DNA of 64,000 nucleotides from Deltaproteobacteria bacterium. GTDB taxonomy: Bacteria > Desulfobacterota > GWC2-55-46 > UBA9637. Numbering within the stretch: position 1 is the first letter of the stretch; each line of letters begins with the position of its first letter. The notes under the pieces are model-generated. The model was not told the origin of the DNA. It did no database searches and was given only the letters and a program-made list of their open reading frames with translations. Location: NCBI GenBank assembly GCA_016214995.1, contig JACRML010000027.1:1766-65765 (forward strand). Reading direction: 5' to 3'. The position numbers and the translations under genes were made by a program. Positions 12,389 through 35,134 of this stretch are shown here, one piece after another.

Positions 12389-12423
12389 AGTGAACTCCCT
12401 TCTAATACAAATTCCAAATAACA

Positions 12424-12534
12424 AATTTCTAATTTCTAAATCCTAATTTCTAATAAAATGTCAAATGTCAAAAAACATTGGAAATTTAGTCATCGGACAT
12501 TTCATTGGAAATTAGACATTAGGATTTAGGATTT
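12424..12534. repeat. Long degenerate heptamer-array hairpin (CTAATTT/CTAAATC family)
   Basis: ctaattt ctaaatc ctaattt ctaata ... aattagacattaggatttaggattt, with an inner gtcaaatgtcaaaaaacattg palindrome. Confidence 0.7.
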
Positions 12535-12539
12535 TCAAG

Positions 12540-16817: not shown

Positions 16818-17315
16818 TCAATCCTTATCCTTTACCGCTTCCTTCTGCCTTCTAATCCTGCCAATAATACCTGGTATTGTCTTTCTGAATAACATGCCAA
16901 GAAATTTATTTATGGGATTAGACCTTTTCGCGAACGGTATTATAGGCTTTTCCACAGCTCCAAGTTTTACCAACTCATTACAGATGATACTGTTTTCAGG
17001 GTCAATCATAAGCCCTTTTTTTAAAACAGCAACAGCCCCTTTTTTATTATCAATCTTAAGATATACCTTGGCAAGGTTTATATAATATTCGGTTTTAGAA
17101 AAGTCTTTCTTTACCGCTTTTGTGCAAAGCTCAATCCCCAACCCTATCTCACCCCATCGCAAGGCGGCGCACATTCCATAATAAGACATATATTTTGCAT
17201 TCTCCTTATCCTCTTTATATGCCTTTTCAAACGCCCTTGTTGCCTTTTCCAAGATACCCTCTTTTAAAAAGTGTAATCCTTGCTTAAATTGCTCCTCTGA
17301 AGATTCTGTTGCCAT
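16818..17315 (-). CDS. Tetratricopeptide-repeat protein
   Basis: 165 aa with a TPR-like helical repeat pattern. Abuts coaX. Confidence 0.6.
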   Translation of the reverse strand: MATESSEEQFKQGLHFLKEGILEKATRAFEKAYKEDKENAKYMSYYGMCAALRWGEIGLGIELCTKAVKKDFSKTEYYINLAKVYLKIDNKKGAVAVLKKGLMIDPENSIICNELVKLGAVEKPIIPFAKRSNPINKFLGMLFRKTIPGIIGRIRRQKEAVKDKD

Positions 17316-18109
17316 TATATATTCCTCTCATAAATAATCTTCAAACCCTCAAGAGTCAAAAATTCATCAACACGTTCAATTGTTCTGCTCTCAGGCGAAA
17401 TGAGTTTGGCAAGCCCGCCGGTAGCCACAACCTTGGCTTTTGAACCAACCTCCATCTTCATCATTTCGACAATACCGTCCACAAGCCCTACATAGCCATA
17501 GAATATACCGGCCTGCATGCTGTCAATGGTATTTTTGCCAACAATCTTTCTGGGCTTTGTTATTTCAACCCGTGGAAGTTTTGCAGCCCTCTGAAACAGA
17601 GCATCCGTTGATATGCCTATGCCGGGCGCAATGGCGCCGCCCATATATTCGCCTTTCTTAGATACATAGTCAAATGTCGTTGCAGTACCGAAATCAACAA
17701 TAATAACTGCATCTTTATAAATCTCGTATGCGGCGACTGCGTTCACAATCCTGTCTGCCCCAACCTCTTTGGGATTATCTGTCATAATGGGCATGCCTGT
17801 CTTGGTGCCAGGACCAACAACAAGAGGTTTAACGCCGAAATATCTTTCTCCCACCTCAAGGAATGTGTCAATCAAAGGCGGAACAACGCAGGATATGATA
17901 GCGCCGCCGATACTATCGGCTTCGATTTTGGTAAAGTTAAAAAGATCCATTATCATAATCCCATACTCATCAGCGGTCCTGCTCTTTTTTGTACCTATAC
18001 GCCAGTGATGGACAAGCCTTTGGCTTTTGTCATGGACAGATTTGTGCCTATCCGTATTATAAATGCCAACAACGATATTTGTATTGCCTATGTCGATAAC
18101 TAAAAGCAT
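17315..18109 (-). CDS. coaX: Type III pantothenate kinase
   Basis: [30 protein letters not shown] motifs. Confidence 0.9.
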
Positions 18110-18119
18110 ATTTAAAACA

Positions 18120-18197
18120 GGCTAAGGCTTAGGCTCAGGTTAAGAAAAAAACAAGCAACACTTTTTTATTTTTTATATTTCTCAACCTTAACCTTTA
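18120..18197. repeat. Heptamer hairpin, GGCTAAG/AGGTTAAG...CTTAACC family
   Basis: ggctaag gcttagg ctcaggt taag ... ctcaaccttaaccttt. The right arm overlaps the stop of V-ATPase D. Confidence 0.6.
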
Positions 18198-18814
18198 TCT
18201 TGCCTCCTCCTCTTGTACCTTTTCAATCTGTATATATCTTCCCTTTCCCTCTCCTCATGAACCCGTTCTATACCCTTCATGCCATACTGTATAGACGGCA
18301 TAATAATCTCCTCAAGGGCATTTATTCTTCTCATATCAGCCTTTATCTCCTCCCCTACCCTCTTTAGCCTTACCTCGCTTGATGCAATTGTAACAATGGC
18401 CTCAAGCACCTTTTCAAAACCCCTTGCAGTCTCAATGACCAGACTGCCCTCTCCTATCGGCGATATATCCCTCGCTTCAATATTTCTTACAAAGGCCTTC
18501 TGTTCTATCTCCGGTATATTTATCCCCCATATATTCTTCACCTTTATATCTATAGATATATCCCTTTTAGAGGCATATGCTGTTGAATAAATTATGTCGC
18601 CAAGAAATGCTTTGGCAAGATGCAGTGAGTATGTTGCATCCCTCATCTGAGAGTTTAACTTTGTCCTTAATTCAAGGCATTCTCCGACACATCTGAAAAA
18701 ATCCTTCATCAGGGCATCTCTCTTGCTTCTCAAGAGCTTGGCCCCGCTCTTTGACACGGAAAGCTGTGTATTTAAAAACAGAAGATTTATCCTTGTGGGC
18801 GAAAATTTTTCCAT
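18188..18814 (-). CDS. atpD: V-type ATP synthase subunit D
   Basis: MEKFSPTRINLL...LLRSKRDAL... typical of the central-stalk D subunit. Start at ATG 18814; upstream codons of the ORF translate a REP. Confidence 0.85.
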   Translation of the reverse strand: MEKFSPTRINLLFLNTQLSVSKSGAKLLRSKRDALMKDFFRCVGECLELRTKLNSQMRDATYSLHLAKAFLGDIIYSTAYASKRDISIDIKVKNIWGINIPEIEQKAFVRNIEARDISPIGEGSLVIETARGFEKVLEAIVTIASSEVRLKRVGEEIKADMRRINALEEIIMPSIQYGMKGIERVHEEREREDIYRLKRYKRRRQDKG

Positions 18815-18849
18815 AGTCAGTTCATGCGAAAATGGCTTTTTTAATACAG

Positions 18850-18906
18850 TGTAGGGGCGGCCCTTGTGGCCGCCCAAAAGCGGGAGAGGACAAGCCCCTC
18901 CCCTAC
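18850..18906. repeat. REP-like palindrome GTAGGGG...CCCCTAC
   Basis: gtaggggcggcccttgtggccgcccaaaagcgggagaggacaagcccctcccctac, with inner stem ggcggcc/ggccgcc. Confidence 0.6.
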
Positions 18907-20282
18907 GGAGAATGGGAATAGTATTTCTCTACAAACTCCTCCTTTATCCTTATAAGCTCTGTTTTTGGCAATGTTGACAAAAGAGTCCAGCCCAGTTTTA
19001 ACGTATCATCTATTGACCTGTCAGCATCACCCTGCCCTACAAACTGCTTTTCAAATTCATCTGCAAATTTCAGATACAGTCTATCCATAGAAGTTAAACC
19101 CTCTTCGCCTATAATTGTGGCAAGCCTTTTCGTATCCCTACCCTTTGCATAAAATGCATACAACTGGTCAGCCACGCCCCTGTGGTCATCTCTGGTCTTG
19201 TCCTTGCCTATGCCAAGATTCATGAGTCTTGAAAGCGATGGAAGCACATCCACTGGCGGATATATACCTTTCCTGAATAGCGCTCTGCTTAAGACAATCT
19301 GGCCTTCGGTTATATAGCCGCTTAAATCTGCTATCGGGTGGGTTATATCATCATCCGGCATTGTTAGTATAGGAATCAGTGTGATAGAACCATCCTTCCC
19401 CTTTATCCTGCCTGCCCGTTCATAAATTGTGGCAAGGTCTGTATACATATAGCCAGGATAACCCCTTCTTCCCGGTATCTCTTCCCTTGCGCTCCCTATC
19501 TCACGCATGGCCTCACAGTAGTTTGTCATATCTGTAAGTATTACCAGAACATGGTGCCCTTTTTCAAATGCAAGATATTCAGCAGCGGTCAAAGCGCTCC
19601 TCGGCGTAAACAGCCTTTCAATGGTCGGGTCTTCCGCCTTGTTTATAAAGGCCACAGTCCGCTCCATTACCCCGCTTTGTTCAAAAACCTTTTTAAAGAA
19701 AAATGCCTCCCTTGATGTAATCCCCATGGCGCCAAATACAATGGAAAACTGCTCGCCACCTGCAACCTTTGCCTGCCGGACTATCTGGGCTGCTATCTCA
19801 TTGGCAGGAAGACCTGCGCCGGAAAATATCGGCAGCTTCTGCCCCCGCACCAAAGTATTCAGACCGTCTATGGTTGATATGCCGGTCTGTATAAAATGAG
19901 CAGGCTTGTCCCGTGCAGTAGGATTTATGGGAAGACCGTTTATGTCCAGCCTTGCTTCGGGTATAATTGGGCAAAAGCCGTCTTCCGGCTCTCCAAGCCC
20001 ATTAAAAAATTTGCCGAGAATATCAATAGATACGCCAATCTTCGCAGTTTCTCCTTTAAGTCTAATCTTTGCCCCTAAAGTATCAACCCCTGATGTGCCT
20101 TCCAGCACCTGCACCACTGCAAGGCCTTCCGTAATCTGGAGTATCTGCCCTTTTCTTATTTCACCATCGGCAAGATGAATCTCCACCATCTCGCCAAGGC
20201 TTCCAGCCGTCACACCCTCAACAAATATGAGCGGTCCGGATATGCTGGTTATGGATTGGTATTCAAAGGTTAACAATCTCAT
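18903..20282 (-). CDS. atpB: V-type ATP synthase subunit B
   Basis: 459 aa, the non-catalytic alpha/beta-fold subunit (…[13 protein letters not shown]…, [15 protein letters not shown]). Confidence 0.95.
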
Positions 20283-20286: not shown

Positions 20287-21843
20287 TCACCCCTCCGCCA
20301 TCCTCATCTCAAGTATCCTCTCTATATTAAAAACCCTTTCGTCCATCCTCTTTGTGCAGAATGCCTCTAAACCGAGAAACTTCTTTCCCTGATACTCCAG
20401 TTCTCCCATATATTTCGGGATAATTGTCCTCCTTGTTTTTTCATCCTTTGCCTTGAGATACACAATATCTAATTTTCTTTCTTCCTTTATTGCCAGTTCA
20501 ATCAGGCTAATCCTCTGTTCAAGAGGCTGTCTTTGTTTTGCCCGTTTATACTGATACTTTGTTACAAACTCCACAATTCTCCTGTCCATAAATATATGCT
20601 TCTTCATAATCGGCTTTTTCAGAATAATCCCATCAAGGTTAGTGCACCTTGACAGCGCCACATAAAGCTGCCCATGTGAAAATGTACCCCTGCCTATATC
20701 TATAATCATCCTGTCAAATGTCAAACCCTGACTCTTGTGAATGGTAACCGCCCATGCAAATTTGATGGGATACTGCGTGAATCTGCCTGTAATCTCCGAC
20801 GCTACCATATTTTTACTCCTATCATAATTAAATTCATACATCTCCCATGTGTAAGGCGCAACATCCACGCGCTCCCCGTCAGAGAGTTCCACCCATATTA
20901 CATCAGGCTCATTTTTAATCTTTTCAATCTCAACAATCTTTCCTATGCTTCCATTTATCCACCGTCCGGAAGAATCATTATTTAAGAGCATGACCTGCGC
21001 CCCGACCTTAATCGTAATATCCTCTGCTGTAGGCAAATCCTTTGCCTCAAAGTCTCCGTCAACTAAGCCGTGATACTTATATTCCTTTCCTTGAATCTCC
21101 GATAGTTTTTTCTGGTTGATGTTATCCGCAAGTTCATTTGTTGTAGTTAGGCAGATATAGAATTCCCCATTGTCCTCAAAATCCGGAAGGTGTTTTAAGT
21201 TTATAGCCGTGAAATCATCATCCGTTGCTGTATTATTCCTTATTGCATTCAGGATGTTCAGAAACCTTGCATCTTTCTGGCGATAGACCTTCTCAAGTTC
21301 AATAAATTCCATGTCCAGACCATTTGAAAAGACCTTTGAATCAAAAAAATACGGACTTTTGTAATAATCTGCAAAAATAGTCTTCTCACGGTATCGGACA
21401 ACAGGGGGAAGTTGATAGAGGTCTCCTATAAATATCATCTGTATTCCGCCGAAGGGAAGAGACTTCTTTTTGCCGTGGATCCTTAAAAATATATCTATGC
21501 AGTCAAGAATGTCAGCCCGCACCATGGATATCTCATCTACTACAATGGCATCAAGGTTTTTGTAAATAGATTTATCCCTTGGCCTAATCTTCTTTACGGT
21601 ATCAGGGGTTACATCTATCTTAAAGTTGAAGAATGAGTGGATGGTCTGTGCCTTCACATTCACCGCAGCCACGCCTGTCGGCGCGATAACCGCAATGGCC
21701 TTTTTTGTGCTGTCCCTGAAATGCTGAAGAAGGGTTGACTTGCCTGTGCCTGCCCTTCCTGTAACAAAGACATTCCTGTCCGTATCCTCCATGATATGGA
21801 GGGCTTTAAGGAAGTGTTCATTTAAATCAAGTTTAATAGACAT
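20287..21843 (-). CDS. Pif1/RecD-like SF1B DNA helicase with C-terminal WYL-like domain
   Basis: Walker [10 protein letters not shown], Walker B VVDEISMV, motif [14 protein letters not shown]-terminal ~70 aa ([53 protein letters not shown]) fit the WYL-domain pattern. Confidence 0.8.
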
Positions 21844-22001
21844 AAATAGAGGGGCATACAGGAAGCGGCTGCCTGTATCTGTATCTGGATTTGGATTCTA
21901 TGTTTTGCGATGCAACTGTTCTTAAAACCATATTTTTATTTTGCGTCATATTTTAAATCTTAAACCTTCTTGCTTCTCTCCTCGTCCTGTAATCTTTGCA
22001 G

Positions 22002-22044
22002 TAATGCCTGCCCATAGGTTGATAAAATCGCATATAAAGACAAC
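22002..22044. repeat. ~45-bp direct repeat, copy 1 (flanks the AbrB-PIN module)
   Basis: taatgcctgcccataggttgataaaatcgcatataaagacaac versus copy 2 at 22801. Confidence 0.75.
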
Positions 22045-22063
22045 CATCCCATTTTTTCATATC

Positions 22064-22498
22064 TTACTCACTTTTAAATATCCTTAAAAATTCCGAAGCG
22101 CTTACAATCTTGACAGACTTGTACCTGCCCATATCCAGCAAATCCTTGTCTCCTGTGATAATAAAATCCGCTGATGCAGATACAGCACAGCCAATGAATT
22201 TATCATCATCGGCGTCCCTGCATACTCCTTTGATTTTATCCGTAACTTCAATTACTTCAAAGAAAGGCAGAACTTCTTCCTCAATAATCACCTTCATCTC
22301 TTGTGCTGTCAGAGAAAATTTCGGATATTCAAGAACGGCCTTAAACTCGTCAAAAGTATCTCTGGAGAGAATTGGGATAATCTTGCCTTTTTTCCAAAGG
22401 TCTACGACTCTTGCAAGTTCGCCTTTAAACAGCAGAGACGATATAAGAATATTGGTATCAAGGACTATCTTGACTGCCGCTTTTTCTTTCTTGCCCAT
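22064..22498 (-). CDS. PIN-domain toxin (type II TA)
   Basis: IVLDTNILISSL ... CRDADDDKFIGCAVSASADFIITGDKDLL, the PIN acidic residues. Confidence 0.85.
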   Translation of the reverse strand: MGKKEKAAVKIVLDTNILISSLLFKGELARVVDLWKKGKIIPILSRDTFDEFKAVLEYPKFSLTAQEMKVIIEEEVLPFFEVIEVTDKIKGVCRDADDDKFIGCAVSASADFIITGDKDLLDMGRYKSVKIVSASEFLRIFKSE

Positions 22499-22713
22499 TT
22501 GACTGCCTCGTCAACAACACCTTCGGTAACGCCAAGTTTTTCCAGTTTGTCCCTTATGCCTTCAAGAGCCGCATCAGCAGGGGTTATCCTGACCGGCATA
22601 AGAATTATCTTTCTTTCCTTTACCGAAACATCAAAGTATTCGGCATCAGGGAACGACTTGACGACCTCCTTCGGCAGGGTTAGCTGATTTTTGGATGTCT
22701 TCTTTGCAAGCAT
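22465..22713 (-). CDS. AbrB/MazE/SpoVT-family antitoxin
   Basis: KNQLTLPKEVVKSFPDAEYFDV swapped-hairpin motif. Overlaps the PIN gene. Confidence 0.8.
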   Translation of the reverse strand: MLAKKTSKNQLTLPKEVVKSFPDAEYFDVSVKERKIILMPVRITPADAALEGIRDKLEKLGVTEGVVDEAVKWARKKKRQSR

Positions 22714-22800
22714 ATTTCCTTACCTCCTTACTGTAAGGATACATTATTTAGCCCAAATATTGCAATCATAAAATACAGCCAAAAAGATCCGCATGGTTTT

Positions 22801-22846
22801 TAATGTCTGCCCCCATAGGTTGACACAATCGTATATAAAGATAATC
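22801..22846. repeat. ~45-bp direct repeat, copy 2
   Basis: taatgtctgcccccataggttgacacaatcgtatataaagataatc; about 85% identical to copy 1. Confidence 0.75.
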
Positions 22847-22864
22847 GTTCTCAGTTTATCGCCG

Positions 22865-24250
22865 TTATTCTCTTAATATTATTTCCTCAACCCTCTGTTT
22901 AGCTTTATTAATAATTTCAGATGCCTCTGCTTTAAGCCTTTCAGCCTCTGACATTCGCTTTTTGACTTCTTCAGCGATTTTGTTTTGGATTTCAAGAGGA
23001 GGAAGGAGGAGTTGAATGTTTTTCAATGCGTTTTGACTTAAATGTCCCATAATAGCGCCAGTGCTGATTCTGTTAAATAACTGTTTGGTTATATTACTGT
23101 TCAACCAGATAGCAATATAATGAGGATTCACATTTTCTTTCTTTAACACAACTCTAAATATCTCTGAACTGATTATCGTTCTCTTATGCTCATCATCTAC
23201 AACGACTGCAATTCCATAAGTGCCTTTTCTTGTAATTAATAAATCTCCACTATCTAATTCAATGTCTTTTGATATGTTGAATGCCGGAATGAATTTAACA
23301 TCTATTAAATCAAAAGAATTAGGTTTTATGTTTGATACTCTGAGATATGGAATTCCCGTTTCTGTAAATTCTCGGAAATCTAGTCCGTTTATTATTTTGG
23401 TTGATATTGCCTCTAATGAGTAAGTCTCAAAAGGTGCATGTTGTATCGCTTCCATTAATTCTATAAACTTTGGCTGATAATAATAAGCATCCACTCTATT
23501 GTCCCGCATTTCTTCGGAGTCAACAACAAAGCACATCTTATCCTCAACCTCTGGAAGTTTTATGCCTAATTCGTCAAGGACATAGCTGTCAATAGAATCC
23601 AAAAGCCTCTGCACCTCGGCTTCCATTTGTTTCTTCTGAGAGTATGCAGACTGCATGATGTCAACGATTTTATTTTGAATTGAGAGAGGTGGGAGAGGGA
23701 TAAGTAAATTATTTATGACGGTTCTGTCCAGATAATTTACTGCATTATTTGCTATCAACAGTAAATTCATCTGTCTTTTGCTATTTTCAAAACATAAGGC
23801 GTAAACAATATACTTTGCGTTAATTCCTTCTTTGACCTGAAATCTAAATATACTTCCGTTTACGATTGCTCTTAGAGGTTCTTTCTCTACAAAACACACT
23901 GATTTGTTTGACGCAATCGTTGCTCCCTTTACAGCAAGCAATATATCATTCTGTCGTAATCGTGCTCTTTCATTTTTATTGTAAATCTCAGGTACAGGAA
24001 TTGAATTTGTAAAATCTATTTCAAAATCCGGCATCAATTCGGTTGCTCTCACCAAAAGTATCTCACCACCCTCTGAATAACATTCACTCGGTGGCAAAAC
24101 ACCGTAAGAACCACTGCCGATAATTGCCCCCAACTTGACTGAATATTTTGATTTTATCTGGTCGTTCAAAAAAGATTTAAATTGAGGCGTGTAACTGAAG
24201 GGATCGAATCTTTCTTTTATCTTATCTGCGTAAACAACAAAACACTGCAT
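22865..24250 (-). CDS. Restriction-modification specificity subunit (HsdS/BcgI-B-like, two TRDs)
   Basis: 461 aa with two target-recognition domains, each followed by the conserved helix ...PLPPLSIQNKIVDIM... / ...LLPPLEIQNKIAEEV.... Confidence 0.85.
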   Translation of the reverse strand: MQCFVVYADKIKERFDPFSYTPQFKSFLNDQIKSKYSVKLGAIIGSGSYGVLPPSECYSEGGEILLVRATELMPDFEIDFTNSIPVPEIYNKNERARLRQNDILLAVKGATIASNKSVCFVEKEPLRAIVNGSIFRFQVKEGINAKYIVYALCFENSKRQMNLLLIANNAVNYLDRTVINNLLIPLPPLSIQNKIVDIMQSAYSQKKQMEAEVQRLLDSIDSYVLDELGIKLPEVEDKMCFVVDSEEMRDNRVDAYYYQPKFIELMEAIQHAPFETYSLEAISTKIINGLDFREFTETGIPYLRVSNIKPNSFDLIDVKFIPAFNISKDIELDSGDLLITRKGTYGIAVVVDDEHKRTIISSEIFRVVLKKENVNPHYIAIWLNSNITKQLFNRISTGAIMGHLSQNALKNIQLLLPPLEIQNKIAEEVKKRMSEAERLKAEASEIINKAKQRVEEIILRE

Positions 24251-24251
24251 T

Positions 24252-26026
24252 TTATTTACCCTTCAAAAATTTTATATATTCCTCATAAATCCCGTCAAAA
24301 TCATTTGCCGGGTCTTCTCTGCCAGTAGCGTCATAGCCGATATGTTCGGCTATTGCCATGAAAATTGGATACTTTGTTAATTTTTCATTTTCGCCTTTTC
24401 TTCTTAAAAACACAAGTGAAGATTTAACACCTGCGCCATAATGAGTGAAGGCAAACTGCGGCAGAGATACAACAGCCAATATCTGGCATTTCTCCATTAT
24501 GAAATTTCTCACATACTGCAAGGAGGAGTTTGTTAAAATCCCGTCCGGCAGAACTATTCCAATCCTGCCTGTCTTAGGCTTCACAAATTCAATACAACGC
24601 TCGATAAACATTATTTCTGTCTTCTGATTCTTTTTGCCCTTGCCAAGCTCATACTTTTCTAAATAATTTTTCTCTGTTGATTTGACAGTTGCGCCAAACG
24701 GCGGGTTAGTGAGAATAATATCAAAATAATCCTTCTTGAAGCCTTTATGTATATCCGTAATTTCCTTAATATCCCTTAACGAATCTGTGCTGATTACATT
24801 GGTATGTCCATCATCATGAATAATCATATTCATTTTGCAGACCCTTGCAATCTGGTCGTTAATCTCAATGCCATAAAGATTATTCATGGCAAAATTATGC
24901 CAGTGTTCCCATGCTTCTCTATCGTCATAATTTTCTTCTGCAAACTTTTTGACTAAATCCATGGCATTAAGCAGGAAACCACCGCTTCCACAAGCAGGGT
25001 CTAAGATTAAATCAGTTCTTTCAGGATTTAGCATCTTGATGGCAAATTCAACAATTGGACGAGGAGTAAAGAACTGCCCCATCTTGCCTTTAAAAAAGTC
25101 CTGCATAAATCGCTCGAATGCGACCCCTTTAGTATCCAGATCAATCTTGTTTATAGCCAACTCCTGCAGGTGCTCAACTACATTATAGACAATCTTTGCG
25201 TCTAACCGAATGTCCTCTCTGAAAACCTCTGAGTCTTCCTTTTTTGCTTTTTGATAAATAGAATCAACTCTATCGTAAACTTCTTCTGCTGATTCATGAG
25301 TGCCAATTTGGAATTTGTAGGTATCGCCCTTCTTCGTACCCTTTTCGTCTTTCAGTTTGCAGAAAAGAAGTTTTGAAACTTCGTCAAAAGCTGTTGTTGG
25401 CGCAAGTCTGCCGCCCTGCCAGACAGTGTCGTGGGATTTCTCTAAAGCCCTGATGAGTTCTTCTCTTGAAACGACTTTTAAATCTCTTGCTGGATCGCCT
25501 TTAATGAACCTGTATTTCGGGGTTTTCCCATATCGTACAGAAACATCGGAGATTACATTTCTTTCTCTTTCGCTCGGGTTGAAACCCGCTACATCAAAGC
25601 TAGTTTTTGTTGTGCCGGCAATAACGGCAGCGAACTTTGCCCTTAAGCTGTTTGCATTGCCAAAAGCCTGTTCAATAGCCTGTTTAAATTCAGCATCTGT
25701 GATTCCGTCTTTTTTGCACTCAACAACCAGATAGGGCTTCTTAAGTTCGTCGTCTTCATAGATAACTATATCTGCCCTGTCTTCAGGTTTTCTTCGCGGA
25801 ACAATAACCTCGATGTCTATCTTTTGTTGGGATACTCATAATCCAGAACCAGTTCGGCAAAATAAGATGCCCTTACTTTCTCCTCGGGTTTTTTGAAACT
25901 TGTCGTATAGTCTCGGCTGCAGTGATATGTAATCTTGGAGTTATCAGCAGAAAAGGATATACAACCCTTTTCTACTCCACTTTGGATATTTTTCATAAAA
26001 ATTGAATCGTGATTGCTAGTTGTCAT
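24252..26026 (-). pseudogene. PD-(D/E)xK nuclease + gamma-class N6-adenine methyltransferase fusion (BcgI-A/type IIB-like), frameshifted
   Basis: ORF 25817..26026 ends ...YEYPNKR*. The next frame is open from 25835 to 24252 with no ATG/GTG/TTG until 25160, and reads KIDIEVIVPRRKPEDRADIVIYEDDELKKPYLVVECKK (D...ExK), then FTPRPIV, DPACGSGGFL (motif I) and LTNPPFG (motif IV). The frames overlap at a T4/A4 run (25822-25825). Confidence 0.7.
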
Positions 26027-26431
26027 TTTATAACCTCAATCAATATTTATAAATAATATTTTTGCCGCTCACAGCTGTAATTAGGCACAGCAACCATTAC
26101 CATCTATTCCATCTATCACAAATTTATGCTCAATAGAACATACTCTTGTTGATAAAGCAAAGTATCTCCCCGCTTCCGGCCGAGTTGCTGGAGTCTTTCA
26201 ATAACCTTCAAACTTGTCCCCCGTATCAAGTACGGGGCAGGCTCTGCAAGCCTGCCCTCGAATGCTTCTATCGGGGGTATTAAGCAGGGATCAGTGTCTG
26301 TGGCTTCGTTTATTTTTAGCATAACTATTTAAACAACCCCTCGGTATTGATATTACCCGCCATGTTTGACAAAACAATTTATCTCATGATAGATTGTTCT
26401 ATAAATTCTAACCTTTACCAAGGAGATTATT

Positions 26432-26602
26432 ATGAAATTGCATGTAATAATTGAACAGGATGAGGCAGGTTATTATGTTGCTGAAGTTCCTGCGCTTCCC
26501 GGCTGTCTTTCTCAGGGCAAAACTTATGAAGAAGCTGTGTCCAATATCAAAGAGGCTGTTGAAGCATGGCTTGAGGTAATGGAATCTAAACAGCAGTTAT
26601 AA
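26432..26602 (+). CDS. HicB-like (UPF0150) antitoxin-family protein, no HicA partner seen
   Basis: Not in ORF track (56 aa). AGGAG-N8-ATG, MKLHVIIEQDEAGYYVAEVPALPGCLSQGKTYEEAVSNIKEAVEAWLEVMESKQQL, the canonical HicB N-domain signature. Confidence 0.7.
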   Translation: MKLHVIIEQDEAGYYVAEVPALPGCLSQGKTYEEAVSNIKEAVEAWLEVMESKQQL

Positions 26603-26621
26603 CCACGGTCTACCAGTTCTC

Positions 26622-28298
26622 TCATTTTGCCATTCCTCCTAAACCCACATCTATCTCCCCAATCATCTCCCCTGCCCTTTGCTTGAACACGTTGCTCGGT
26701 ATATCCTGCATACGCATAAGTCTTGCTGCAATCGGGCTTGCGAGTATCTTATCCAAATATGTCCCCTCGCCTAATGCCTTTTTAGCCCTACCATAAAACT
26801 CAATTATGCACTTCATCATCCAATATTGTTTTTCCATGGTGCAGAATGCATCTGCATCGTTAAATACGCTCTGTCTTAAAAATACCTCCTTGACAAGCCT
26901 TCCAAGTTCCATGGTAAGCCTGTCTGCATCCCTATCTCGGAGTAAAATAGCATCTTCTGCCACTTCTCTCGTAAACCACTCTTTCAGTGAACTATAATAG
27001 AGGCTGAAACTTTTATTCCAGTCAACTGCCGGAAAGTGTCTCCTGTATGCCAGGTCTGTATCAAGGGCCCACAAAGCGCCCGCCACCCTTAGAGATGCCT
27101 GCGTTACCGGCTCGGAGAAATCTCCACCGGGCGGCGATACTGCGCTTACAATAGTAACAGAGCCTGTTCTTTCAACGTTGCCGAGACACTTTACCTTTCC
27201 CGCCCTTTCATAAAAATTTCCGAGCCGTGTTGCAAGATACGGCGGATAACCCTCTTCGCCCGGCATCTCCTCCATTCTGGATGATATCTCCCTGAGTGCC
27301 TCTGCCCATCTTGAGATAGAGTCTGTCATGAGCGCAACGTTGTATCCCATATCCCTGAAATATTCGGCGATAGTTGCGCCAATAAAGATAGACGCCTCCC
27401 TTGCTGCAACAGGCATATTTGATGTATTTACTATAAGGACGGTTCTTAAACTTAATGGCAGGCCAGTGGATGGATCTAAAAGTTTTGGAAAGTCTGTCAA
27501 GACCTCGGTCATTTCATTCCCACGTTCTCCGCATCCGACATAAACAATAATGCCTGATTTTGCATATCTTGCAAGGGTCTGCTCCACAATGGTCTTGCCT
27601 GTTCCAAATCCGCCCGGCACAATGGCTGCACCGCCCTCTGCCACCGGAAACATGGTGTCAAATATACGTTGACCTGTAAAAAAAGGGGTATCGGGCGACA
27701 ATCTTTGTTTAAACGGCCTGGGTTGTCTAACAGGCCATTCGTGATATAGCGAAATGGTGTTTTTATCTTCAAGGATTACAACAGGTTCATCACCTGCAAT
27801 ATTTCCGCTTTTTATCTCTTTAACAACGCCATTTTTATATGGCGGCACAAGAATTCTATGCTCTATACTTTCATTTTCTTTGACAATGCCAATAACATCT
27901 CCTGCACCAATAGCATCTCCTTTTTTTATTTTAGGAATAAATTCCCATGTTTTATCCAATAATACATCAACGTTAATCCCCCTGCTTATAAAATTGCCTG
28001 CCTTGAGCCTTAATGATTCAAGCGGCCTTTGTATACCGTCAAAAACATTTGATAGAAGGCCGGGGCCGAGCCTTATAGCAAGAGATTTGCCATAGTTTAC
28101 AACCTCCTGCCCGATTGAAAGCCCTGTTGTATCCTCATAAACCTGCAATATGGCCTGCTCCCCTTGAATCTTTATAATCTCGCCGAGAAGACCGTCTTTG
28201 CCGACAAAGGCGGTTGTGTGCATCTTAGCGCCGCTCATGCCTTTAGCGGTAACCGTTGGTCCGGAGATGCCGGAGATTTTTCCTTTGATGGTCTGCAT
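26622..28298 (-). CDS. atpA: V-type ATP synthase catalytic subunit A
   Basis: P-loop GGFGTGKT. 558 aa, with no intein-sized insertion. Confidence 0.95.
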   Translation of the reverse strand: MQTIKGKISGISGPTVTAKGMSGAKMHTTAFVGKDGLLGEIIKIQGEQAILQVYEDTTGLSIGQEVVNYGKSLAIRLGPGLLSNVFDGIQRPLESLRLKAGNFISRGINVDVLLDKTWEFIPKIKKGDAIGAGDVIGIVKENESIEHRILVPPYKNGVVKEIKSGNIAGDEPVVILEDKNTISLYHEWPVRQPRPFKQRLSPDTPFFTGQRIFDTMFPVAEGGAAIVPGGFGTGKTIVEQTLARYAKSGIIVYVGCGERGNEMTEVLTDFPKLLDPSTGLPLSLRTVLIVNTSNMPVAAREASIFIGATIAEYFRDMGYNVALMTDSISRWAEALREISSRMEEMPGEEGYPPYLATRLGNFYERAGKVKCLGNVERTGSVTIVSAVSPPGGDFSEPVTQASLRVAGALWALDTDLAYRRHFPAVDWNKSFSLYYSSLKEWFTREVAEDAILLRDRDADRLTMELGRLVKEVFLRQSVFNDADAFCTMEKQYWMMKCIIEFYGRAKKALGEGTYLDKILASPIAARLMRMQDIPSNVFKQRAGEMIGEIDVGLGGMAK

Positions 28299-28310
28299 AG
28301 CTGTTAGTTA

Positions 28311-28373
28311 AATAGCGAATTAGCGGATTAGCGAATTAGTTTTTCTAATCTCCAATTATCTAATCCCTAATTC
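28311..28373. repeat. Octamer-array hairpin (TAGCGAAT/TAGCGGAT ... CTAATC units)
   Basis: aatagcgaattagcggattagcgaattag tttttc taatctccaattatctaatccctaattc. Confidence 0.7.
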
Positions 28374-28374: not shown

Positions 28375-28704
28375 CTATCTCTTAATTTTCACCTGATACC
28401 CTATTGCCCTTCTGATAAGCCGTGCGATATACGACTCCATCTCTACCTCGCTATGCCATGATTTTGGTGTATTTATCGGAACAATAACAGGTATGCCTGT
28501 CTTTCTAATCCTCTTTAAAATGCCTTCATCAACCTTTGTCAGCAATTTTTCTTCTATAGCCAGAAGGCCGTAGCCGCCGGTTTTTACGATGTCATTCAGA
28601 ACAGCCGTGATATCCTCACCCTCTTGAACCTCTTTGACCTCAACACCTGCAAGGTTAAAACCAAGAGATGTGTCTGGATATGTGATTACAAGGAGTTTGG
28701 ACAT
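28375..28704 (-). CDS. atpF: V-type ATP synthase subunit F
   Basis: MSKLLVITYPDTSLGFNLAGVEV..., the F-subunit fold pattern. ATG 28704 preferred over the TTG at 28719. Confidence 0.8.
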   Translation of the reverse strand: MSKLLVITYPDTSLGFNLAGVEVKEVQEGEDITAVLNDIVKTGGYGLLAIEEKLLTKVDEGILKRIRKTGIPVIVPINTPKSWHSEVEMESYIARLIRRAIGYQVKIKR

Positions 28705-28710
28705 ATCAAA

Positions 28711-28793
28711 AAGTTGCAAGTTCCAAGTTGCAGGTTTTAAGTTTAAAAAATGTAGTTCAAATCTTGAAACTTGTTACTTGAAACTTGAAACTT
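28711..28793. repeat. Heptamer-array hairpin (AAGTTGC / GAAACTT family)
   Basis: aagttgc aagttcc aagttgc aggtttt aagttta ... cttgaaa cttgtta cttgaaa cttgaaa ctt. The same family occurs at 47801-47843. Confidence 0.75.
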
Positions 28794-29838
28794 ATATTAT
28801 AAACCTTCTCACCTCAATTGCTGGTATGTCAAAAATCTTTGCACGGGCAATAAGCCTTAAATTTTTTACTTCCCTTATCTTTTTATAAACAAAACAGATG
28901 GCAAGGGCTATGCTTAACGGCTCCACCACAGTCAGCCTGCAAACTTTTTGTCTTAGCAGTTCCTCAAGCCGTTCCTCCAGAAAAAAAGCGTTCTCAGGTT
29001 CTGCTGAGCCAACTAACTTTTTCCAGTAGCTGTCTTTTAAGAAATCATAGAGCTCTTTCATAAGCTCGGTTTTATTCCGGCTCTTTGTGAGTCTCAAAAA
29101 ATCATCTTTATCAATTATATCCCCGCCGGCAAGAAAATAACCGCCGGCATCTGCAATGGCAATATCTTCACCAGCCAATTTTAATAATGTGGATATGTTT
29201 ATGCTGTCTACTCTCTGCGCTATAAACTGCTCAATTATTTTTTTATTTATATCGCTTCCAGCCGTGTCATAGATAGCATGGTTAGCAGCAAAGCGATCCA
29301 GGGCAAGTTCAAGAATTATGAGATGCCTTTCGCGCATATACTGCCCCATGACATGCTGCATGGGTCTTGCATATGGGCTTCCCCATGTAGAAAGAAGTTT
29401 TATAACCTCAAACACATCCCTCTGCTGGTTCAATTCCTTTAATGCAGACTCGTTCATCTCGCCGGCTGGTATGAGGACAGATGCGCTCTCATCGGGTGAA
29501 ACCCCATTTACCCTGGCCCTTAATATCGCCTTTAAGTTGTATACCTCCCATATAGAGAATATTGCCCGCAGTAAAACCCTCATCTCATCAGAAGAACAAC
29601 CCCACAATCCCTTGAAGGCCTTGGCAAGATTTCCCTTAAGCCCAGCCTCTATAACTTCTCTCTCATTTTTATACCTTGCAGAGGCTATCTCTATATCCCG
29701 TGCATAGGTGGTTGCTTTTAAATGACTTATGAAACTCTGAATACCATCTGAGGCAATAAGTCCGTCATATGCCTCTTTGGTAAGAAGTTCACCTTTCCAT
29801 GCCCTTATCCGGGCATTGAGATAACTCAAATCCATCAT
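28792..29838 (-). CDS. atpC: V-type ATP synthase subunit C (eukaryotic d-like)
   Basis: 348 aa all-helical protein. Position and size fit the C subunit. Confidence 0.8.
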   Translation of the reverse strand: MMDLSYLNARIRAWKGELLTKEAYDGLIASDGIQSFISHLKATTYARDIEIASARYKNEREVIEAGLKGNLAKAFKGLWGCSSDEMRVLLRAIFSIWEVYNLKAILRARVNGVSPDESASVLIPAGEMNESALKELNQQRDVFEVIKLLSTWGSPYARPMQHVMGQYMRERHLIILELALDRFAANHAIYDTAGSDINKKIIEQFIAQRVDSINISTLLKLAGEDIAIADAGGYFLAGGDIIDKDDFLRLTKSRNKTELMKELYDFLKDSYWKKLVGSAEPENAFFLEERLEELLRQKVCRLTVVEPLSIALAICFVYKKIREVKNLRLIARAKIFDIPAIEVRRFII

Positions 29839-29888
29839 AAAAATAAATTTTAAATTCTAAGAGCTTGTTGAAAAACTCAACAATCTCT

Positions 29889-29971
29889 GATTACACAGAT
29901 AAAAAATCAGATTACACAGATTAAAACTCCTTGAAATATCTGTGTAATCATTTTTTATAATCTGTGTAATC
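29889..29971. repeat. GATTACACAGAT cruciform: two direct + two inverted copies
   Basis: Forward copies at 29889-29900 and 29910-29921; inverted copies (ATCTGTGTAATC) at 29938-29949 and 29960-29971. Confidence 0.85.
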
Positions 29972-30024
29972 AAGGCTGTTGGTGTCTTTTTCAGCAGCCC
30001 TTTTTTCATGTTAACTGTTAGGCA

Positions 30025-30633
30025 TTAGGATTTAGGAATTTCACTAAACAATATCTTGTCAATCGTTGAAACAAGTTCTGCTTTTGCCTTCTCTAATCTT
30101 GAATCCAAGGTGTTTACCATCTTATATTTTTTATCCTTGCTCATAATAACAATCCCTGGCGGCATATTCTCTGTTTGATAAGGAATGAACTCAAAACCAG
30201 AGGCATTGTTTAAATCGGCCAAAATAGCAATATCCTTTTTTGATACAATAACTTCCGCCTTTGTATCTCCCATATATATCTGCCATTTGTCCGCAGCTTC
30301 TTTAAAAAGCCTTTTTAATATATTCGGATAATCTTTATCATGCCGCAGATCTTCAAGCCTGTTGTATGCCATGTCCAAAACCTTGTTTATGGCAAGTTGC
30401 CTCTCCTTCAGTATAAATTCCTTGGCATACAACCTCGCATTGGCTAACATTCCTACCTTTTGCAGCTCTATGGATCTCTTAGCCTTTTCAAACTCTTTTT
30501 GCCTTAATCCATTTGCCTCTTCAGCGGCTGCCTTTAAAATCGCATCCGCCTCTTTCCCAGCCTCTTCAATAATGGCGGCATATTCCCTTCTGGCATCTTG
30601 TTCCAGCGCTTTTAATAATTCTTTTTCGTTCAT
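30025..30633 (-). CDS. atpE: V-type ATP synthase subunit E
   Basis: 202 aa with a long N-terminal charged helix and a globular C-terminus. Operon position fits. Confidence 0.75.
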   Translation of the reverse strand: MNEKELLKALEQDARREYAAIIEEAGKEADAILKAAAEEANGLRQKEFEKAKRSIELQKVGMLANARLYAKEFILKERQLAINKVLDMAYNRLEDLRHDKDYPNILKRLFKEAADKWQIYMGDTKAEVIVSKKDIAILADLNNASGFEFIPYQTENMPPGIVIMSKDKKYKMVNTLDSRLEKAKAELVSTIDKILFSEIPKS

Positions 30634-30642: not shown

Positions 30643-30724
30643 GATTACACAGATTTCAAAACATGATTACACAGATTAAAAAACAAATAATCTGTGTAAT
30701 CCGTATTCCATGATCAGCGTAATC
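30643..30724. repeat. GATTACACAGAT cluster: two direct, one inverted, one degenerate inverted copy
   Basis: Forward at 30643-30654 and 30665-30676; inverted at 30690-30701; degenerate agcgtaatc at 30716-30724. Confidence 0.8.
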
Positions 30725-30734: not shown

Positions 30735-30944
30735 TTAAGCTAAGATAAGATAGGCTATTACAAAACCAAGTATTACCATGGTTTCCGGTATTGCCGTCAA
30801 GATAATGACAATGCCGCTCAATTCTGGTTTTTCTGCCAAAGCTCCGGCGCCGGCAGAGCCTATCTTGCTCTGCGCCCATGCAGTTGCAAGCGCCGGAATC
30901 GCTATAGCAAGAGCCGCCGCTAACGCAATAAGACCTTTTTCCAT
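30735..30944 (-). CDS. atpK: V-type ATP synthase proteolipid subunit K (c-ring)
   Basis: Two-TM hairpin with the conserved ion-binding Glu in IPETMVILGF. GGAGG lies 5 nt before ATG 30944. Confidence 0.85.
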   Translation of the reverse strand: MEKGLIALAAALAIAIPALATAWAQSKIGSAGAGALAEKPELSGIVIILTAIPETMVILGFVIAYLILA

Positions 30945-30963
30945 AAACACCTCCATTCAGTTT

Positions 30964-31024
30964 ATTAGAGAATTGGTGGATTAGTTAATTTGTTTTTCTA
31001 ATTCGCTAATCTCTAATTCTCTGA
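30964..31024. repeat. Low-complexity hairpin (GATTAG/CTAATC family)
   Basis: agagaattggtggattagttaatt tgttttt ctaattcgctaatctctaattctct. Confidence 0.65.
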
Positions 31025-31025
31025 T

Positions 31026-32939
31026 TTATTTTCCTGTCTTTCTAAACGGTTCATATCTTCTTCCGCCTGCCTGATAAAATTTGCTGAAAAACTCCACATA
31101 GTGGAGTCTCAGTGATTGAATACCCGGACTAAGTATGCCCAGTAATATGTTTATGACATGTATTATGCCGGCTATGAATATGCCAAGGATAACATTGCCG
31201 GTCAAGCCGCCCAATTTATTCGCCACCAGCGCCAATGCAACAGATGCGGTTCCAATGGCCATGATACGGGCATATGAAAGAATATTGCCGATTGTCTTCA
31301 ATGCCTCCAATGGCCCGATAATCCCTTCAAACAATATAAGTATAATAAAGGCAGCCAGCATAATAACTACACCGGGTGTAATGAGTCCCTTTGGCAGATA
31401 ACCTGCCAGGATGGCCACTATAGTAATCAGGGCAAGCATCAATATCAAAGTAGATGCCTTTGCCATAGCCTCCTTACCCTTGCCCCTGTGGATATAATTA
31501 ACTATTGCAAGCATTAAACCAAGGAGTATATGTCCTATGCCTATTCCAATCGCTAATACCAGAAAAACCTTCATGGCCTTCACTCTGTCAAAGATTATTG
31601 GATGAAGCAGGCCAAACCTTTCCCCCAAATCTCCAAAAAATTCTCCGAAAAATATTCCAAATGCCACTGCAAACAGGCTTGAAATAGTTAAGACAGAGGC
31701 AAGATTGGCAAGATACTCTTTTGCCTTAAATCGCTTTTTGAGATAAAGACTCAACATAAAGAGTATGCCGCCATATCCGATATCGCCGAGTATGAGGCCA
31801 AAAAATGTTGGAAAGAATAATGCAAGATATGGCGTTGGGTCTACAGAACCATACTTAGGCGGTGGCAGGATATTTAAAAAAACCTCAAAGGGCTTTAAAA
31901 GTTTTGGGTTTTTTATATACACAGGTATTAAGTCTATCTCATCCTCCCTTATCTCCATCTCCCGCACCATAACCTTATCACTAAACTTATCCATGATAGC
32001 TATGGAAAGGGCATGGAATTTATCCTTAGGAATCCATCCAACTATAACAAACGTAAACCTTGTATGGGCGCAATATACAAGGGTCTTTAACTCATCAATC
32101 GTGTCACGCAGAAGCCTCATCAACAATTCAAGCTTTTTATACCATTCAAGCGCTAACCCATTTAATTTATTATCAATATTCATTACCAGAACAGGCATTT
32201 CTTCCCTTCTCTTTATCATAACCTTGAGCGCATCAAAGAGCGTCATATCGGTATATCTTTCTGGAAGCTTTATCTCTGCTATGGCCTCGCTGGCGATAAG
32301 CGCCTTCATCTTTGCATCATATTTTTTAGGGTAGGTAATTACAATGCCAATAGTATCTTTATCTATATCTTTTACAAAAAACTGATGCCTCTCTTCTGCA
32401 ATACGGCCTACCTCATTCTCAAGCAAAGGGATAATATCCTCTTTGGCCCTGTCAATGGTAATGCCGATTGTCTCAAAATTATTAAGCCCCTTTAATTTTG
32501 CCACAAGAGGCGCAATGCCCTTTAATATCTTTTCATAACGTCCGATAGATGAAATTTCCTCTGAAAGCCCTGCCTTTTCAGCATGCAGCCCTTTAACCTC
32601 TTTCTCCAATTTATCCACTTCATCCAGAAAGGCATGAGATGTAATATCTGCAAGCAAAACAGGCATATCGCCTGTCATCAAGCCTTCTTCCCTTCCTGCC
32701 CCTGATGCAGGAAGCAGAAGATATATACCCTTCAGCCGTTCAAGTATCTTCTCAAGCCTTTCCTTGAGCAAAGCCTTTTCTCTTTCAATAGGCTGTCTTC
32801 TTAAGTATGAATCTTCAAGCCCAATCCTTGCAGGTATACTCTCTATATGAACAATGCCAAGATTATGGAGCAGCCTTATAACCTCATCCAGAAGCGCCTT
32901 GGAACCAATAAGCTGTACCTTGCTCATTACCTTTATCAT
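31026..32939 (-). CDS. atpI: V-type ATP synthase subunit I (a-subunit, stator/proton channel)
   Basis: 637 aa: soluble coiled N-half and a 7-8 TM C-half with the conserved Arg region (LSYARIMA). Confidence 0.85.
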   Translation of the reverse strand: MIKVMSKVQLIGSKALLDEVIRLLHNLGIVHIESIPARIGLEDSYLRRQPIEREKALLKERLEKILERLKGIYLLLPASGAGREEGLMTGDMPVLLADITSHAFLDEVDKLEKEVKGLHAEKAGLSEEISSIGRYEKILKGIAPLVAKLKGLNNFETIGITIDRAKEDIIPLLENEVGRIAEERHQFFVKDIDKDTIGIVITYPKKYDAKMKALIASEAIAEIKLPERYTDMTLFDALKVMIKRREEMPVLVMNIDNKLNGLALEWYKKLELLMRLLRDTIDELKTLVYCAHTRFTFVIVGWIPKDKFHALSIAIMDKFSDKVMVREMEIREDEIDLIPVYIKNPKLLKPFEVFLNILPPPKYGSVDPTPYLALFFPTFFGLILGDIGYGGILFMLSLYLKKRFKAKEYLANLASVLTISSLFAVAFGIFFGEFFGDLGERFGLLHPIIFDRVKAMKVFLVLAIGIGIGHILLGLMLAIVNYIHRGKGKEAMAKASTLILMLALITIVAILAGYLPKGLITPGVVIMLAAFIILILFEGIIGPLEALKTIGNILSYARIMAIGTASVALALVANKLGGLTGNVILGIFIAGIIHVINILLGILSPGIQSLRLHYVEFFSKFYQAGGRRYEPFRKTGK

Positions 32940-32974: not shown

Positions 32975-33093
32975 GAGAGAGGAAACAGGAAAGAGTTTCT
33001 CTCTTTTCTAATTCCTAATTTCTCTTTCCTGTTTTGCTATAACTTTGCATTTTCCAATTTACAATCTTCAATCTACAATTTTCAATCTACAAT
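32975..33093. repeat. Inverted repeat plus CAATCTA heptamer array
   Basis: aggaaacaggaaagag / ctctttcctgttt, then caatctt caatcta caatttt caatcta caat. The last units encode the C-terminus of the H/G-like protein. Confidence 0.65.
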
Positions 33094-33399
33094 ATGCCGC
33101 ACAACTATCTCAACAGCCTTTTCCTGCCTCTTCTCTACCCTCAGCCTTAATTCTTCAGCCTGTTTTTTTGCCTCTGCCTTTATAATATCAGCTTCTTTTT
33201 CAATCTTCTCCATCTCCTCTTTTTTATGCTCATGCAGCATCCTTTCAACCTGTTTTGACATGGATACCCTCATCTCTTCTGCCCTATGCAGTGCATCCTG
33301 TTTAATCTTCAGCGCCTTTTGCTTGGCCTCATTCAACAGGTTCTCCAGTTCATCTTCTTTTCGCTTCAAAGATTCTATGACGTCTGTTTCATTCATCAT
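33082..33399 (-). CDS. V-type ATPase peripheral-stalk subunit (H/G-like), K/E-rich coiled coil
   Basis: ~105 aa single charged helix immediately upstream of subunit I. Assignment rests on position and composition only. Confidence 0.5.
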
Positions 33400-33583
33400 C
33401 CTTCTCCCCTTGCTCCTCTTTGCTTTCTTGCTCAACCTCTACAGAATATTTTCCATCTGCCCATTTGCCCAGGTCAATAAGACTGCATCTTTCTGAACAG
33501 AATGGCCTGAAAGCATTCTCTTGCCATCCGGTTTCCTTGCCGCATACAGGGCATTTAATCTTTGTATTCATCATTTTGTGCAT
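33389..33583 (-). CDS. yacG: DNA gyrase inhibitor YacG (zinc finger)
   Basis: [33 protein letters not shown], the canonical YacG C4 motif followed by an acidic tail. Confidence 0.8.
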
Positions 33584-34920: not shown

Positions 34921-35134
34921 GAATACTTATCCTATTTCTTAATATCACTCAAATTGTGGTGCTAACGGGTTAGAAATTATATTTATGATGATTATATATG
35001 TCAAGAAAAATGTTATTTTTTGCTTGACTATACCCTGTTTCTTGGTTAAATAGAGAAAACTTGTTAAATATATAGTTGGGCGGCAGGTGTGGGCAATCGT
35101 AGTTTGTATTCAATCGACCAATAGAGGAAACGAC

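Follow-up and report, generated by a model that had tools for sequence, protein, structure and literature searches.

How have the two catalytic genes of a rotary ATPase operon come to lie more than 6 kb apart, and did the genes that now separate them arrive as one island? The question is raised by a V/A-type ATPase operon in a stretch of 64,000 nt (contig JACRML010000027.1; hereafter the window, meaning the whole stretch analysed) from an uncultivated groundwater bacterium, in which a gap of 6,339 nt on the minus strand lies between atpA and atpB. A sequence-only reading of the window had taken the gap for a single 6.3 kb defence island. We compared the ATPase locus with that of close relatives, by which we mean those whose atpA and atpB are 76–82 % and 86–90 % identical, respectively, to those of the window. 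From this comparison it is probable that the junction between atpA and atpB (A|B) is, in this clade, a recurrent hotspot whose cargo varies by genome, and that the 6.3 kb of the window are separate acquisitions stacked on one another.

All the ATPase genes are read from the minus strand: first H-like, I, K, E, C, F and A (33435 to 26622) and, beyond the gap, B and D (20282 to 18188), so that the canonical F-A-B-D adjacency is broken. The products all pass the Pfam gathering threshold except the H/G-like one, which matches its family only weakly; the position of its open reading frame (ORF) agrees with that of a 106–108 aa ORF after yacG in the relatives.

33082–33435, minus strand: small stalk subunit, H/G-like, true start likely near 33399 (PF16999 V-ATPase_G_2, E = 8.5e-4, 20.3 bits vs 28)
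31026–32939, minus strand: subunit I, the a-subunit (PF01496, 78.7 bits)
30735–30956, minus strand: subunit K, the c-ring proteolipid (PF00137, 57.6 bits)
30025–30633, minus strand: subunit E (PF01991, 65.3 bits)
28792–29838, minus strand: subunit C, AC39/d (PF01992, 177 bits)
28375–28719, minus strand: subunit F (PF01990, 51.6 bits)
26622–28298, minus strand: catalytic subunit A, atpA (Pfam)
18903–20282, minus strand: subunit B, atpB (PF00006, 266 bits; PF22919, 100 bits)
18188–18877, minus strand: subunit D (PF01813, 140 bits)

Downstream of atpD come coaX (17315–18109) and a tetratricopeptide repeat (TPR) gene, a synteny shared with loci L002, L084, L087 and L088 of the comparison set described below. 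The gap itself holds the following features, given in the direction of transcription of the operon.

26432–26602, plus strand: hicB-like orphan antitoxin gene (PF15919, 45.7 bits)
26115–26322, minus strand: small ORF or post-atpA segment, its 3′ 93 nt common to locus L172 (blastn, 83 % vs L172 1369–1458)
24252–26026, minus strand: restriction-modification (R-M) fusion gene, PD-(D/E)xK nuclease (HSDR_N_2) plus N6-adenine methyltransferase, frameshifted
22865–24250, minus strand: S subunit with two target recognition domains (TRDs) (two PF01420 matches; PADLOC Specificity_I, 6.4e-45)
22812–22841, minus strand: 30-nt direct repeat, copy 1, upstream of AbrB-PIN
22465–22713, minus strand: AbrB/MazE-like putative antitoxin (PF04014, 18.7 bits, below the cut-off of 24.7)
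22064–22498, minus strand: PIN-domain toxin (PF13470 PIN_3, 82 bits; TIGR00305, 73.8 bits)
22011–22040, minus strand: 30-nt direct repeat, copy 2, downstream of PIN
20287–21843, minus strand: Pif1-family SF1B helicase with a C-terminal WYL domain (PF05970, 105 bits; PF13280, 24.9 bits, cut-off 21.8)

ORF layout and Pfam thus bear out the earlier statement that the operon is split between A and B by foreign-looking genes (a HicB, an R-M fusion, an S, an AbrB-PIN and a helicase gene), but two entries in that list need amending: hicB is encoded by the plus strand and converges on atpA (stop codons 19 nt apart), with no hicA-like ORF on either side in the ORF layout, and the R-M fusion is not continuous. 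In the A-rich run AAAAGATAG near 25820 (25817–25823), a 1-nt frameshift splits it; after repair it encodes 591 aa (PF13588, 55.5 bits; PF02384, 156 bits; PADLOC MTase_I, 2.9e-134), and the frameshift could be an error of sequencing, a phase-variable switch or the mark of a pseudogene. The start of the S gene overlaps the stop of the R-M fusion, and this segment has the lowest G+C content of the region (0.32–0.39), under that of its flanks. The AbrB-like and PIN genes overlap by 34 nt, in the layout of a type II toxin-antitoxin (TA) pair (AbrB/PIN, VapBC-like), and the 30-nt direct repeat that bounds them occurs only twice in the window, with 0 expected. The post-atpA segment contains a perfect hairpin at 26235–26257.

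The helicase aligns end to end (residues 5–515) with SsPif1, the Pif1 of Sulfurihydrogenibium (PDB 8bns; 1.9e-220). Bacterial Pif1 helicases with a C-terminal WYL domain are represented by TePif1, DdPif1 and SsPif1 (PMC9964779; bioRxiv 10.1101/163188); the window protein shares with them the full-length match to SsPif1 and both domains above cut-off, and differs in that its gene lies head-to-tail with atpB with a Shine-Dalgarno sequence embedded in it. Homologues at 60–72 % identity number in the thousands, in genomes labelled Nitrospirota and Thermodesulfobacteriota, and one that is 91 % identical (P0122) is found in seven contigs, flanked by DUF6982 and atpI-like genes and not near any V-ATPase gene. 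In that context (L168–L171) this closest homologue outside an ATPase junction faces, in convergent orientation, the atpI-like and ATPase_gene1 genes of an F/N-type ATPase cluster. Among the gap genes, PADLOC gave the helicase partial-domain matches only, and PIN, AbrB and HicB none. The helicase therefore appears, by domain content and homology, to be an ordinary bacterial Pif1-WYL enzyme and a defence gene by none of the tests run, so that the label of defence island suits the frameshifted R-M genes, the one TA pair and the orphan antitoxin but not the helicase.

Known R-M systems of type IIB (BcgI-like) and of type I-like organisation combine a nuclease-methyltransferase fusion with a separate S subunit, those of type IIB cleaving on both sides of their site. 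The gap genes share with them a polypeptide joining a PD-(D/E)xK nuclease to a gamma-type N6-adenine methyltransferase and a two-TRD S subunit encoded directly downstream, but the window gene is frameshifted and the likeness is one of domain architecture.

To place the split, we drew atpB-centred loci (designated L plus a number) from JGI metagenomes and from a genome set with one member per GTDB species, mapped the window proteins onto them, and took the A-B gap as the distance between tblastn matches in the 135 other V/A-ATPase loci holding both genes. The median gap was 73 nt, in keeping with the claim that A and B are normally adjacent, and it exceeded 300 nt in six of the 135 loci, representing four distinct arrangements (L084–86, L087, L063 and L135; in the last the gap is 769 nt and the atpA match partial). 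A split at A|B is unusual for V/A-ATPases generally and is not a chance layout. No relevant report of V-type ATPase operons disrupted by insertions or by TA genes came up in a literature search.

The right-hand edge of the gap is compact. The helicase stop TGA (20289–20287) is followed by a 4-nt spacer (AGCC) and the atpB start ATG at 20282, as had been read from the sequence, and the Shine-Dalgarno sequence GGAGG (20296–20292, minus strand) sits within the last helicase codons; atpB is thus positioned for expression through the helicase gene, as also proposed. The join recurs in the same register in L088, L172 and a relic in L084. Locus L088 (JGI Ga0209619) opens within this helicase gene, and atpB, atpD, coaX and the TPR gene follow in colinear order. 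On the single contig of L172 (CAZILF010000034), atpA is followed by a short spacer, an ORF of 168 aa and the helicase, after which come the 4-nt spacer, atpB and atpD. Since the helicase-atpB join was assembled independently twice, this junction is genuine and no assembly chimera.

Across the window, its relatives and one locus outside the clade, the junction and its neighbours are found in several states:

L082/83, L175: intact, prfB-yacG-H-I-K-E-C-F-A-B-D, with A and B 0–6 nt apart
L089, L174: non-coding, hairpin-rich A|B spacer of 232 and 214 nt, respectively
L084–86 (>24 contigs): Phd/ParE and MNT/HepT genes between A and B, and a separate 4.4-kb insertion at C|F
L087: two small ORFs and a split IS605-type TnpB at A|B
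window, L088, L172: helicase layer at A|B
L001: AAA_21 ATPase gene and a 198-aa ORF between B and D
L176, L002: A and B on separate contigs of one metagenome-assembled genome (MAG), JACQEJ01
L081: F-A alone amid unrelated genes
L063 (UBP2 UBA5202): 6 kb A|B gap (4029–10000) holding three unknown ORFs beside genes for a type IIG-like methyltransferase and a GIY-YIG protein, every one co-oriented

The gaps C|F, B|D and D|coaX of the same operon thus also receive insertions. In JACQEJ01, contig 27 reads yacG-H...A and then ubiE, and contig 18 reads nth-B-(73 aa)-D...coaX. Locus L063, which also has a 292-aa ORF between atpB and atpD (11414–12563), is an independent, phylum-level case of a split A|B. 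As further observations on these loci, atpA was not found in the 7–10 kb upstream of atpB in L133 and L136 (atpB about 65 % identical), which are possible additional cases of separated catalytic genes. A repeat of 23–52 nt (AAATAAATCTGTCCCGGTTTTCC) is common to L084 and L087 and absent from the window. A 26–52-nt repeat (…GGAGAAAAGCGGGATGCAG.GAAAATAAATCTGTCCCGGTTTTCC…) flanks the two small ORFs in the A|B gap of L087 (11886–11908 and 12661–12711) and lies between parE and the helicase relic in L084 (12529–12804; also in L085 and L086); it too is absent from the window.

Neighbour-joining trees of atpA and atpB twice pair intact with disrupted genomes at 94–95 % bootstrap, L082 with L001 and L175 with L174/L089; the state of the junction has therefore changed more than once.

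The relatives also separate the window cargo into layers. In L172 the atpA stop is directly followed by a homologue of window positions 26207–26115, and hence, relative to L172, hicB and some 415 nt are inserted in the window. Between its atpA and atpB, L172 has none of the R-M/S genes, AbrB-PIN or hicB. The relic in L084–86, situated between parE and MNT, comprises 130 nt of the helicase 3′ end (95 % identical) and about the first 25 codons of atpB; the complete atpB of these loci lies beyond it, after hepT. The helicase-atpB join and the short post-atpA segment would thus be the oldest, shared layer of cargo, and R-M/S, AbrB-PIN and hicB appear to be later additions specific to the window. 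This answers in two ways the earlier proposal to look at the junction in relatives: for the helicase layer a shared arrangement was found, the outcome that the earlier reading had itself named as refuting its claim, whereas the remaining genes are later layers particular to the window. Overall, the gap is best described as a stack of layers of different age and not as a single island.

The layers differ in divergence as well. Nei-Gojobori estimates between the window and relatives gave synonymous divergence (dS) of 0.76–1.2 for atpA and atpB, with a ratio of nonsynonymous to synonymous divergence (dN/dS) of 0.08–0.11 (0.08–0.10 for atpB alone), and dS of 1.1–1.6 with dN/dS of 0.09–0.15 for atpD. 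For the helicase, dS was 0.43 and dN/dS 0.11, both against L172 (ATPase context) and against L169 (housekeeping context), and nucleotide identity falls from 0.93–0.97 to 0.78–0.84 exactly at the atpB ATG. The helicase layer therefore coalesces more recently than the genes adjoining it, a pattern that points to its spread by lateral exchange, with a breakpoint at the start of atpB. The window and L088/L172 belong to separate populations (atpB dS of 0.8–0.9). The footprint in L084, in turn, would be the product expected of one homologous crossover in atpB plus one illegitimate join.

On the reading we prefer, that of a recurrent hotspot with stacked cargo, an ordinary Pif1-WYL helicase gene would first have become joined to atpB, its last codons supplying the Shine-Dalgarno sequence at a 4-nt spacing. 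The helicase layer would then have spread between lineages by recombination, later than the divergence of the ATPase genes. Later still, and in the window only, the orphan hicB, the low-GC, frameshifted R-M fusion with its S gene, and AbrB-PIN bounded by the 30-nt repeats would have been added. Turnover of cargo would proceed through recombination anchored in the conserved atpA and atpB, with one homologous and one illegitimate join, and a site-specific integrase is probably not involved at the A|B junction. Only co-oriented insertions, allowing read-through or bringing a promoter, would persist; atpB-atpD would be transcribed by read-through or from cargo promoters, and in the window atpB would be transcribed with the helicase, its translation coupled through the embedded Shine-Dalgarno sequence. 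A comparable pattern has been described for type VI secretion effector-immunity arrays in Vibrio cholerae, where modules are displaced sequentially and homology-facilitated illegitimate recombination is discussed (PMC5361080). There, modules that arrive beside a conserved anchor gene leave relics of those they displace, as L084 keeps a helicase 3′ end and some 25 atpB codons upstream of MNT/HepT and a fresh atpB; the mechanism proposed here differs in being deduced from a single footprint.

Orientation and selection agree with continued use of the operon. In the A|B, B|D and D|coaX gaps of the window, L084, L087, L172, L001, L002 and L063, 27 of the 28 cargo genes are co-oriented with the operon, the lone exception being the hicB of the window; this fits expression of B-D by read-through. 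The presence of A and B at separate loci in JACQEJ01 supports the possibility that B-D can work as an independent unit. The dN/dS of atpA, atpB and atpD (0.08–0.15) is equal against intact and split relatives, and the ATPase genes are under strong purifying selection.

Several observations weigh against this account. The left-hand join, atpA|hicB, is found in this contig alone. The convergent, plus-strand hicB would hinder read-through from the operon promoter, and a scan for consensus promoters and terminators did no better than on shuffled sequences (49 vs 40.9 ± 6.8 and 17 vs 14.9 ± 3.9, respectively). The C|F insertion of L084 has two of its three genes on the opposite strand; co-orientation is therefore no universal rule. 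The atpA of the window has lost 24 aa in frame at about 26932–26944, a loss that may impair this particular operon. The backbones of the neighbour-joining trees are star-like (support 14–68 %), so that the order of events is not recoverable from them, and they do not distinguish a single ancestral break, later repaired, from several independent ones.

The 24-aa loss removes a conserved segment of the C-terminal domain, the C-terminus itself being intact, and leaves 558 aa vs about 584 expected. The missing segment, xIMKxLEREGELKEVVQVIGLEALQ, is absent only from the window in an alignment to P0014, P0008, P0009, P0013, P0046 and P0065 (the blastn gaps agree), and is kept even in homologues that are 60 % identical. 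It could be a real lesion of the catalytic subunit or an assembly error. Elsewhere in the subunit, near window 27830 (residues ~155–157, in the non-homologous region), P0008, P0009, P0013 and P0014 each carry a different proline/glycine-rich insertion of 10–26 aa, which occurs neither in the window nor in distant homologues.

Among the alternatives, the one that survives best, though we judge it unlikely, brings in a small integron between prfB (37844–38890) and yacG (33389–33586), at window 33583–37792, which abuts the 5′ end of the ATPase operon:

33583–34920, minus strand: integron integrase (TIGR02249, 364 bits vs a cut-off of 265)
35135–35503, plus strand: cassette 1, a 122-aa ORF, with a 63-nt site (35497–35559) read by eye as attC, in R″-L″-L′-R′ layout
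35576–35709, plus strand: cassette 2, an ORF-less 134-nt palindrome
35795–37653, plus strand: cassette 3, a type II R-M pair (REase_II, 5e-104), with a 134-nt palindrome at 37659–37792

The integrase aligns to residues 13–316 of VchIntIA (PDB 2a3v) with one 1-residue gap, spanning the IntI-specific extra domain, and a perfect sigma-70 promoter, TTGACA-17-TATAAT (35004 to 34976), reads into it. The element appears, from its gene content, to be complete, small and chromosomal. Like known chromosomal integrons it has an intI bearing the extra domain, a promoter region that is divergent and attC-like palindromes after the cassettes; it differs in having three cassettes only, lying between prfB and yacG and abutting a housekeeping operon. 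A 220-aa ORF with a TTG start (34970–35632, minus strand), which has no family match and overlaps the GC-rich attC region and the 122-aa ORF, is probably no gene. The earlier statement that no integrase or obvious att site lies at the edges stands for the gap; the integrase gene that meets the 5′ end of the operon had been missed in that reading.

According to this alternative, the neighbouring integrase inserts promoterless cassettes at attC-like or secondary sites in palindromic spacers, the operon itself becoming a cassette array. It can point to a bona fide intI 7 kb upstream, to one textbook-like attC and two attC-like palindromes beside it (read by eye), to cargo resembling that of chromosomal integrons in its small size, co-orientation and frequent TA genes, to AbrB-PIN lying between direct repeats, and to a palindrome in the E|C spacer with CAACA...TGTTG flanks and attC-like geometry. 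No canonical attC was recognised in the A|B gap, but the three heuristic scans for it came out empty or below shuffled sequences (10 vs about 24 in shuffles), have no discriminating power and are unusable as negative evidence. Two cargo-bearing loci, L084 and L087, have prfB and yacG adjacent (as they also are in L082 and L175), and their contigs lack intI; neither the helicase nor the 3.2 kb R-M segment is a typical cassette, and the integron's own cassettes point away from the operon. No link between the integron and the A|B gap was found. We therefore treat the integron as a side finding and a rival of low probability.

A wider version, to which we give somewhat less credence, makes the operon a general integration platform, in which the neighbouring integrase, or integrases elsewhere in the genomes of the relatives, would insert and swap promoterless, co-oriented cassettes (TA, R-M, small ORFs), transcribed from the operon, at attC-like or REP (repetitive extragenic palindromic)-like palindromes in the spacers. 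The spacers are rich in repeats. A REP-like palindromic repeat, GATTACACAGAT, occurs 10 times in the window vs 0.33 expected and forms clusters in the K|E and E|C spacers:

29839–30024: E|C spacer with nested REP-like palindromes (GATTACACAGAT x4), repeats at 29889–29971, hairpin dG −36.6
30643–30701: K|E spacer, second GATTACACAGAT cluster

A second palindromic family of 59 nt (GAATTAG/CTAATTC) occupies the F|A (28306–28364) and I|K (30959–31025) spacers, and the intact relative L082 has compact operon spacers. Copies of GATTACACAGAT occur also at window 8968–9085 and at other intergenic sites in L081, L084 and L087. Rfam gave just two matches in the window, a tRNA-Cys and a PyrR element, both lying away from the gap; the latter is a PyrR-binding leader (61288–61399, minus strand; RF00515, 55.5 bits), unrelated to the ATPase split.

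The claim from which the question started, that a 6.3 kb defence island entered between atpA and atpB in one recent horizontal event, is about as improbable. The low G+C content of R-M/S relative to its flanks, the R-M and TA genes typical of island cargo and the existence of an intact relative speak for it, but insertion as a unit does not agree with the helicase-atpB join in L088 and L172 and its relic in L084–86, with the order atpA-x-helicase-atpB in L172 where R-M, TA and hicB are lacking, or with AbrB-PIN carrying flanking repeats of its own; nor do L088 and L172 belong to the window's population. No recombinase gene was found between 20287 and 26621 by Pfam or ORF layout, and no direct repeats or att sites flank the whole 6.3 kb. 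The sole sequence common to both edges is GGAGG..ATGAGA, a Shine-Dalgarno sequence plus start. Considered as a flanking repeat, 26 nt at the 3′ end of the helicase gene (20354) match the 3′ region of atpA (26839) at 77 %, but the likeness is most probably fortuitous, since helicases in non-ATPase contexts have an unchanged C-terminus. Nor was it accepted that the atpA stop is followed by a relic of the 5′ end of atpB, the basis for this being ATGAGA plus 13/31 matches.

Still more doubtful is that the operon is in decay, the V/A-ATPase being lost while insertions pile up under relaxed selection. The in-frame deletion in atpA, the spacers swollen by REP-like repeats and the fragmented operons of L081 and L002/L176 could be read in this way, but the nine genes are all full length, the dN/dS values quoted above hold at dS of 0.8–1.6 and are the same against intact and split relatives, and the Walker A loop of subunit A (GGFGTGKT) is intact. 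Least credible of all is an artefact of metagenome assembly that fused two genomic regions into a chimeric contig: the contig does belong to a MAG, the atpA|hicB join is unique to it, and the atpA deletion and R-M frameshift could be assembly errors, but the helicase-atpB join was assembled twice independently, the single contig of L172 holds atpA, helicase and atpB, and the synteny of both flanks agrees with relatives.

Hotspots of accessory and defence genes between core genes are known from the pan-genomes of E. coli, Pseudomonas and Vibrio. The locus studied here shares with them a fixed position, conserved flanks, cargo (R-M, TA, insertion sequences) particular to each genome, no integrase at the edges and empty sites in relatives. 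It differs in that the flanks are adjacent cistrons of one operon encoding partner subunits of one enzyme, and in that C|F, B|D and D|coaX are used as well. The kind of locus is thus already known, and what is new is its position inside the operon of a single enzyme. In cyanobacteria and chloroplasts, the atp1 and atp2 units place the beta and alpha genes of ATP synthase in different transcription units. The parallel is that partner subunits need not be co-transcribed, as JACQEJ01 with its separate A and B loci illustrates; those splits are ancient, fixed and free of cargo, whereas the present one varies among close relatives and its gap is filled. A split in the V/A-ATPase is less surprising because F-type catalytic genes are also split in some lineages and because the expression of the two halves is here a prediction.

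Operons for multi-subunit machines usually pass for insertion-proof, for reasons of polarity and stoichiometry, and this clade gives a counter-series for one rotary ATPase. It is a natural series, running from intact operons through short hairpin spacers and various cargo to physically separate loci, with purifying selection throughout, and it shows that atpA-atpB linkage is dispensable. The orientation of the cargo suggests that surviving insertions are filtered for co-orientation. For those who call genomic islands, the window is a caution that an apparent single island can consist of layers of different age, one of them an ordinary helicase gene. The clade is also a test system for how far the V/A-ATPase needs transcriptional and translational coupling of its subunit genes.

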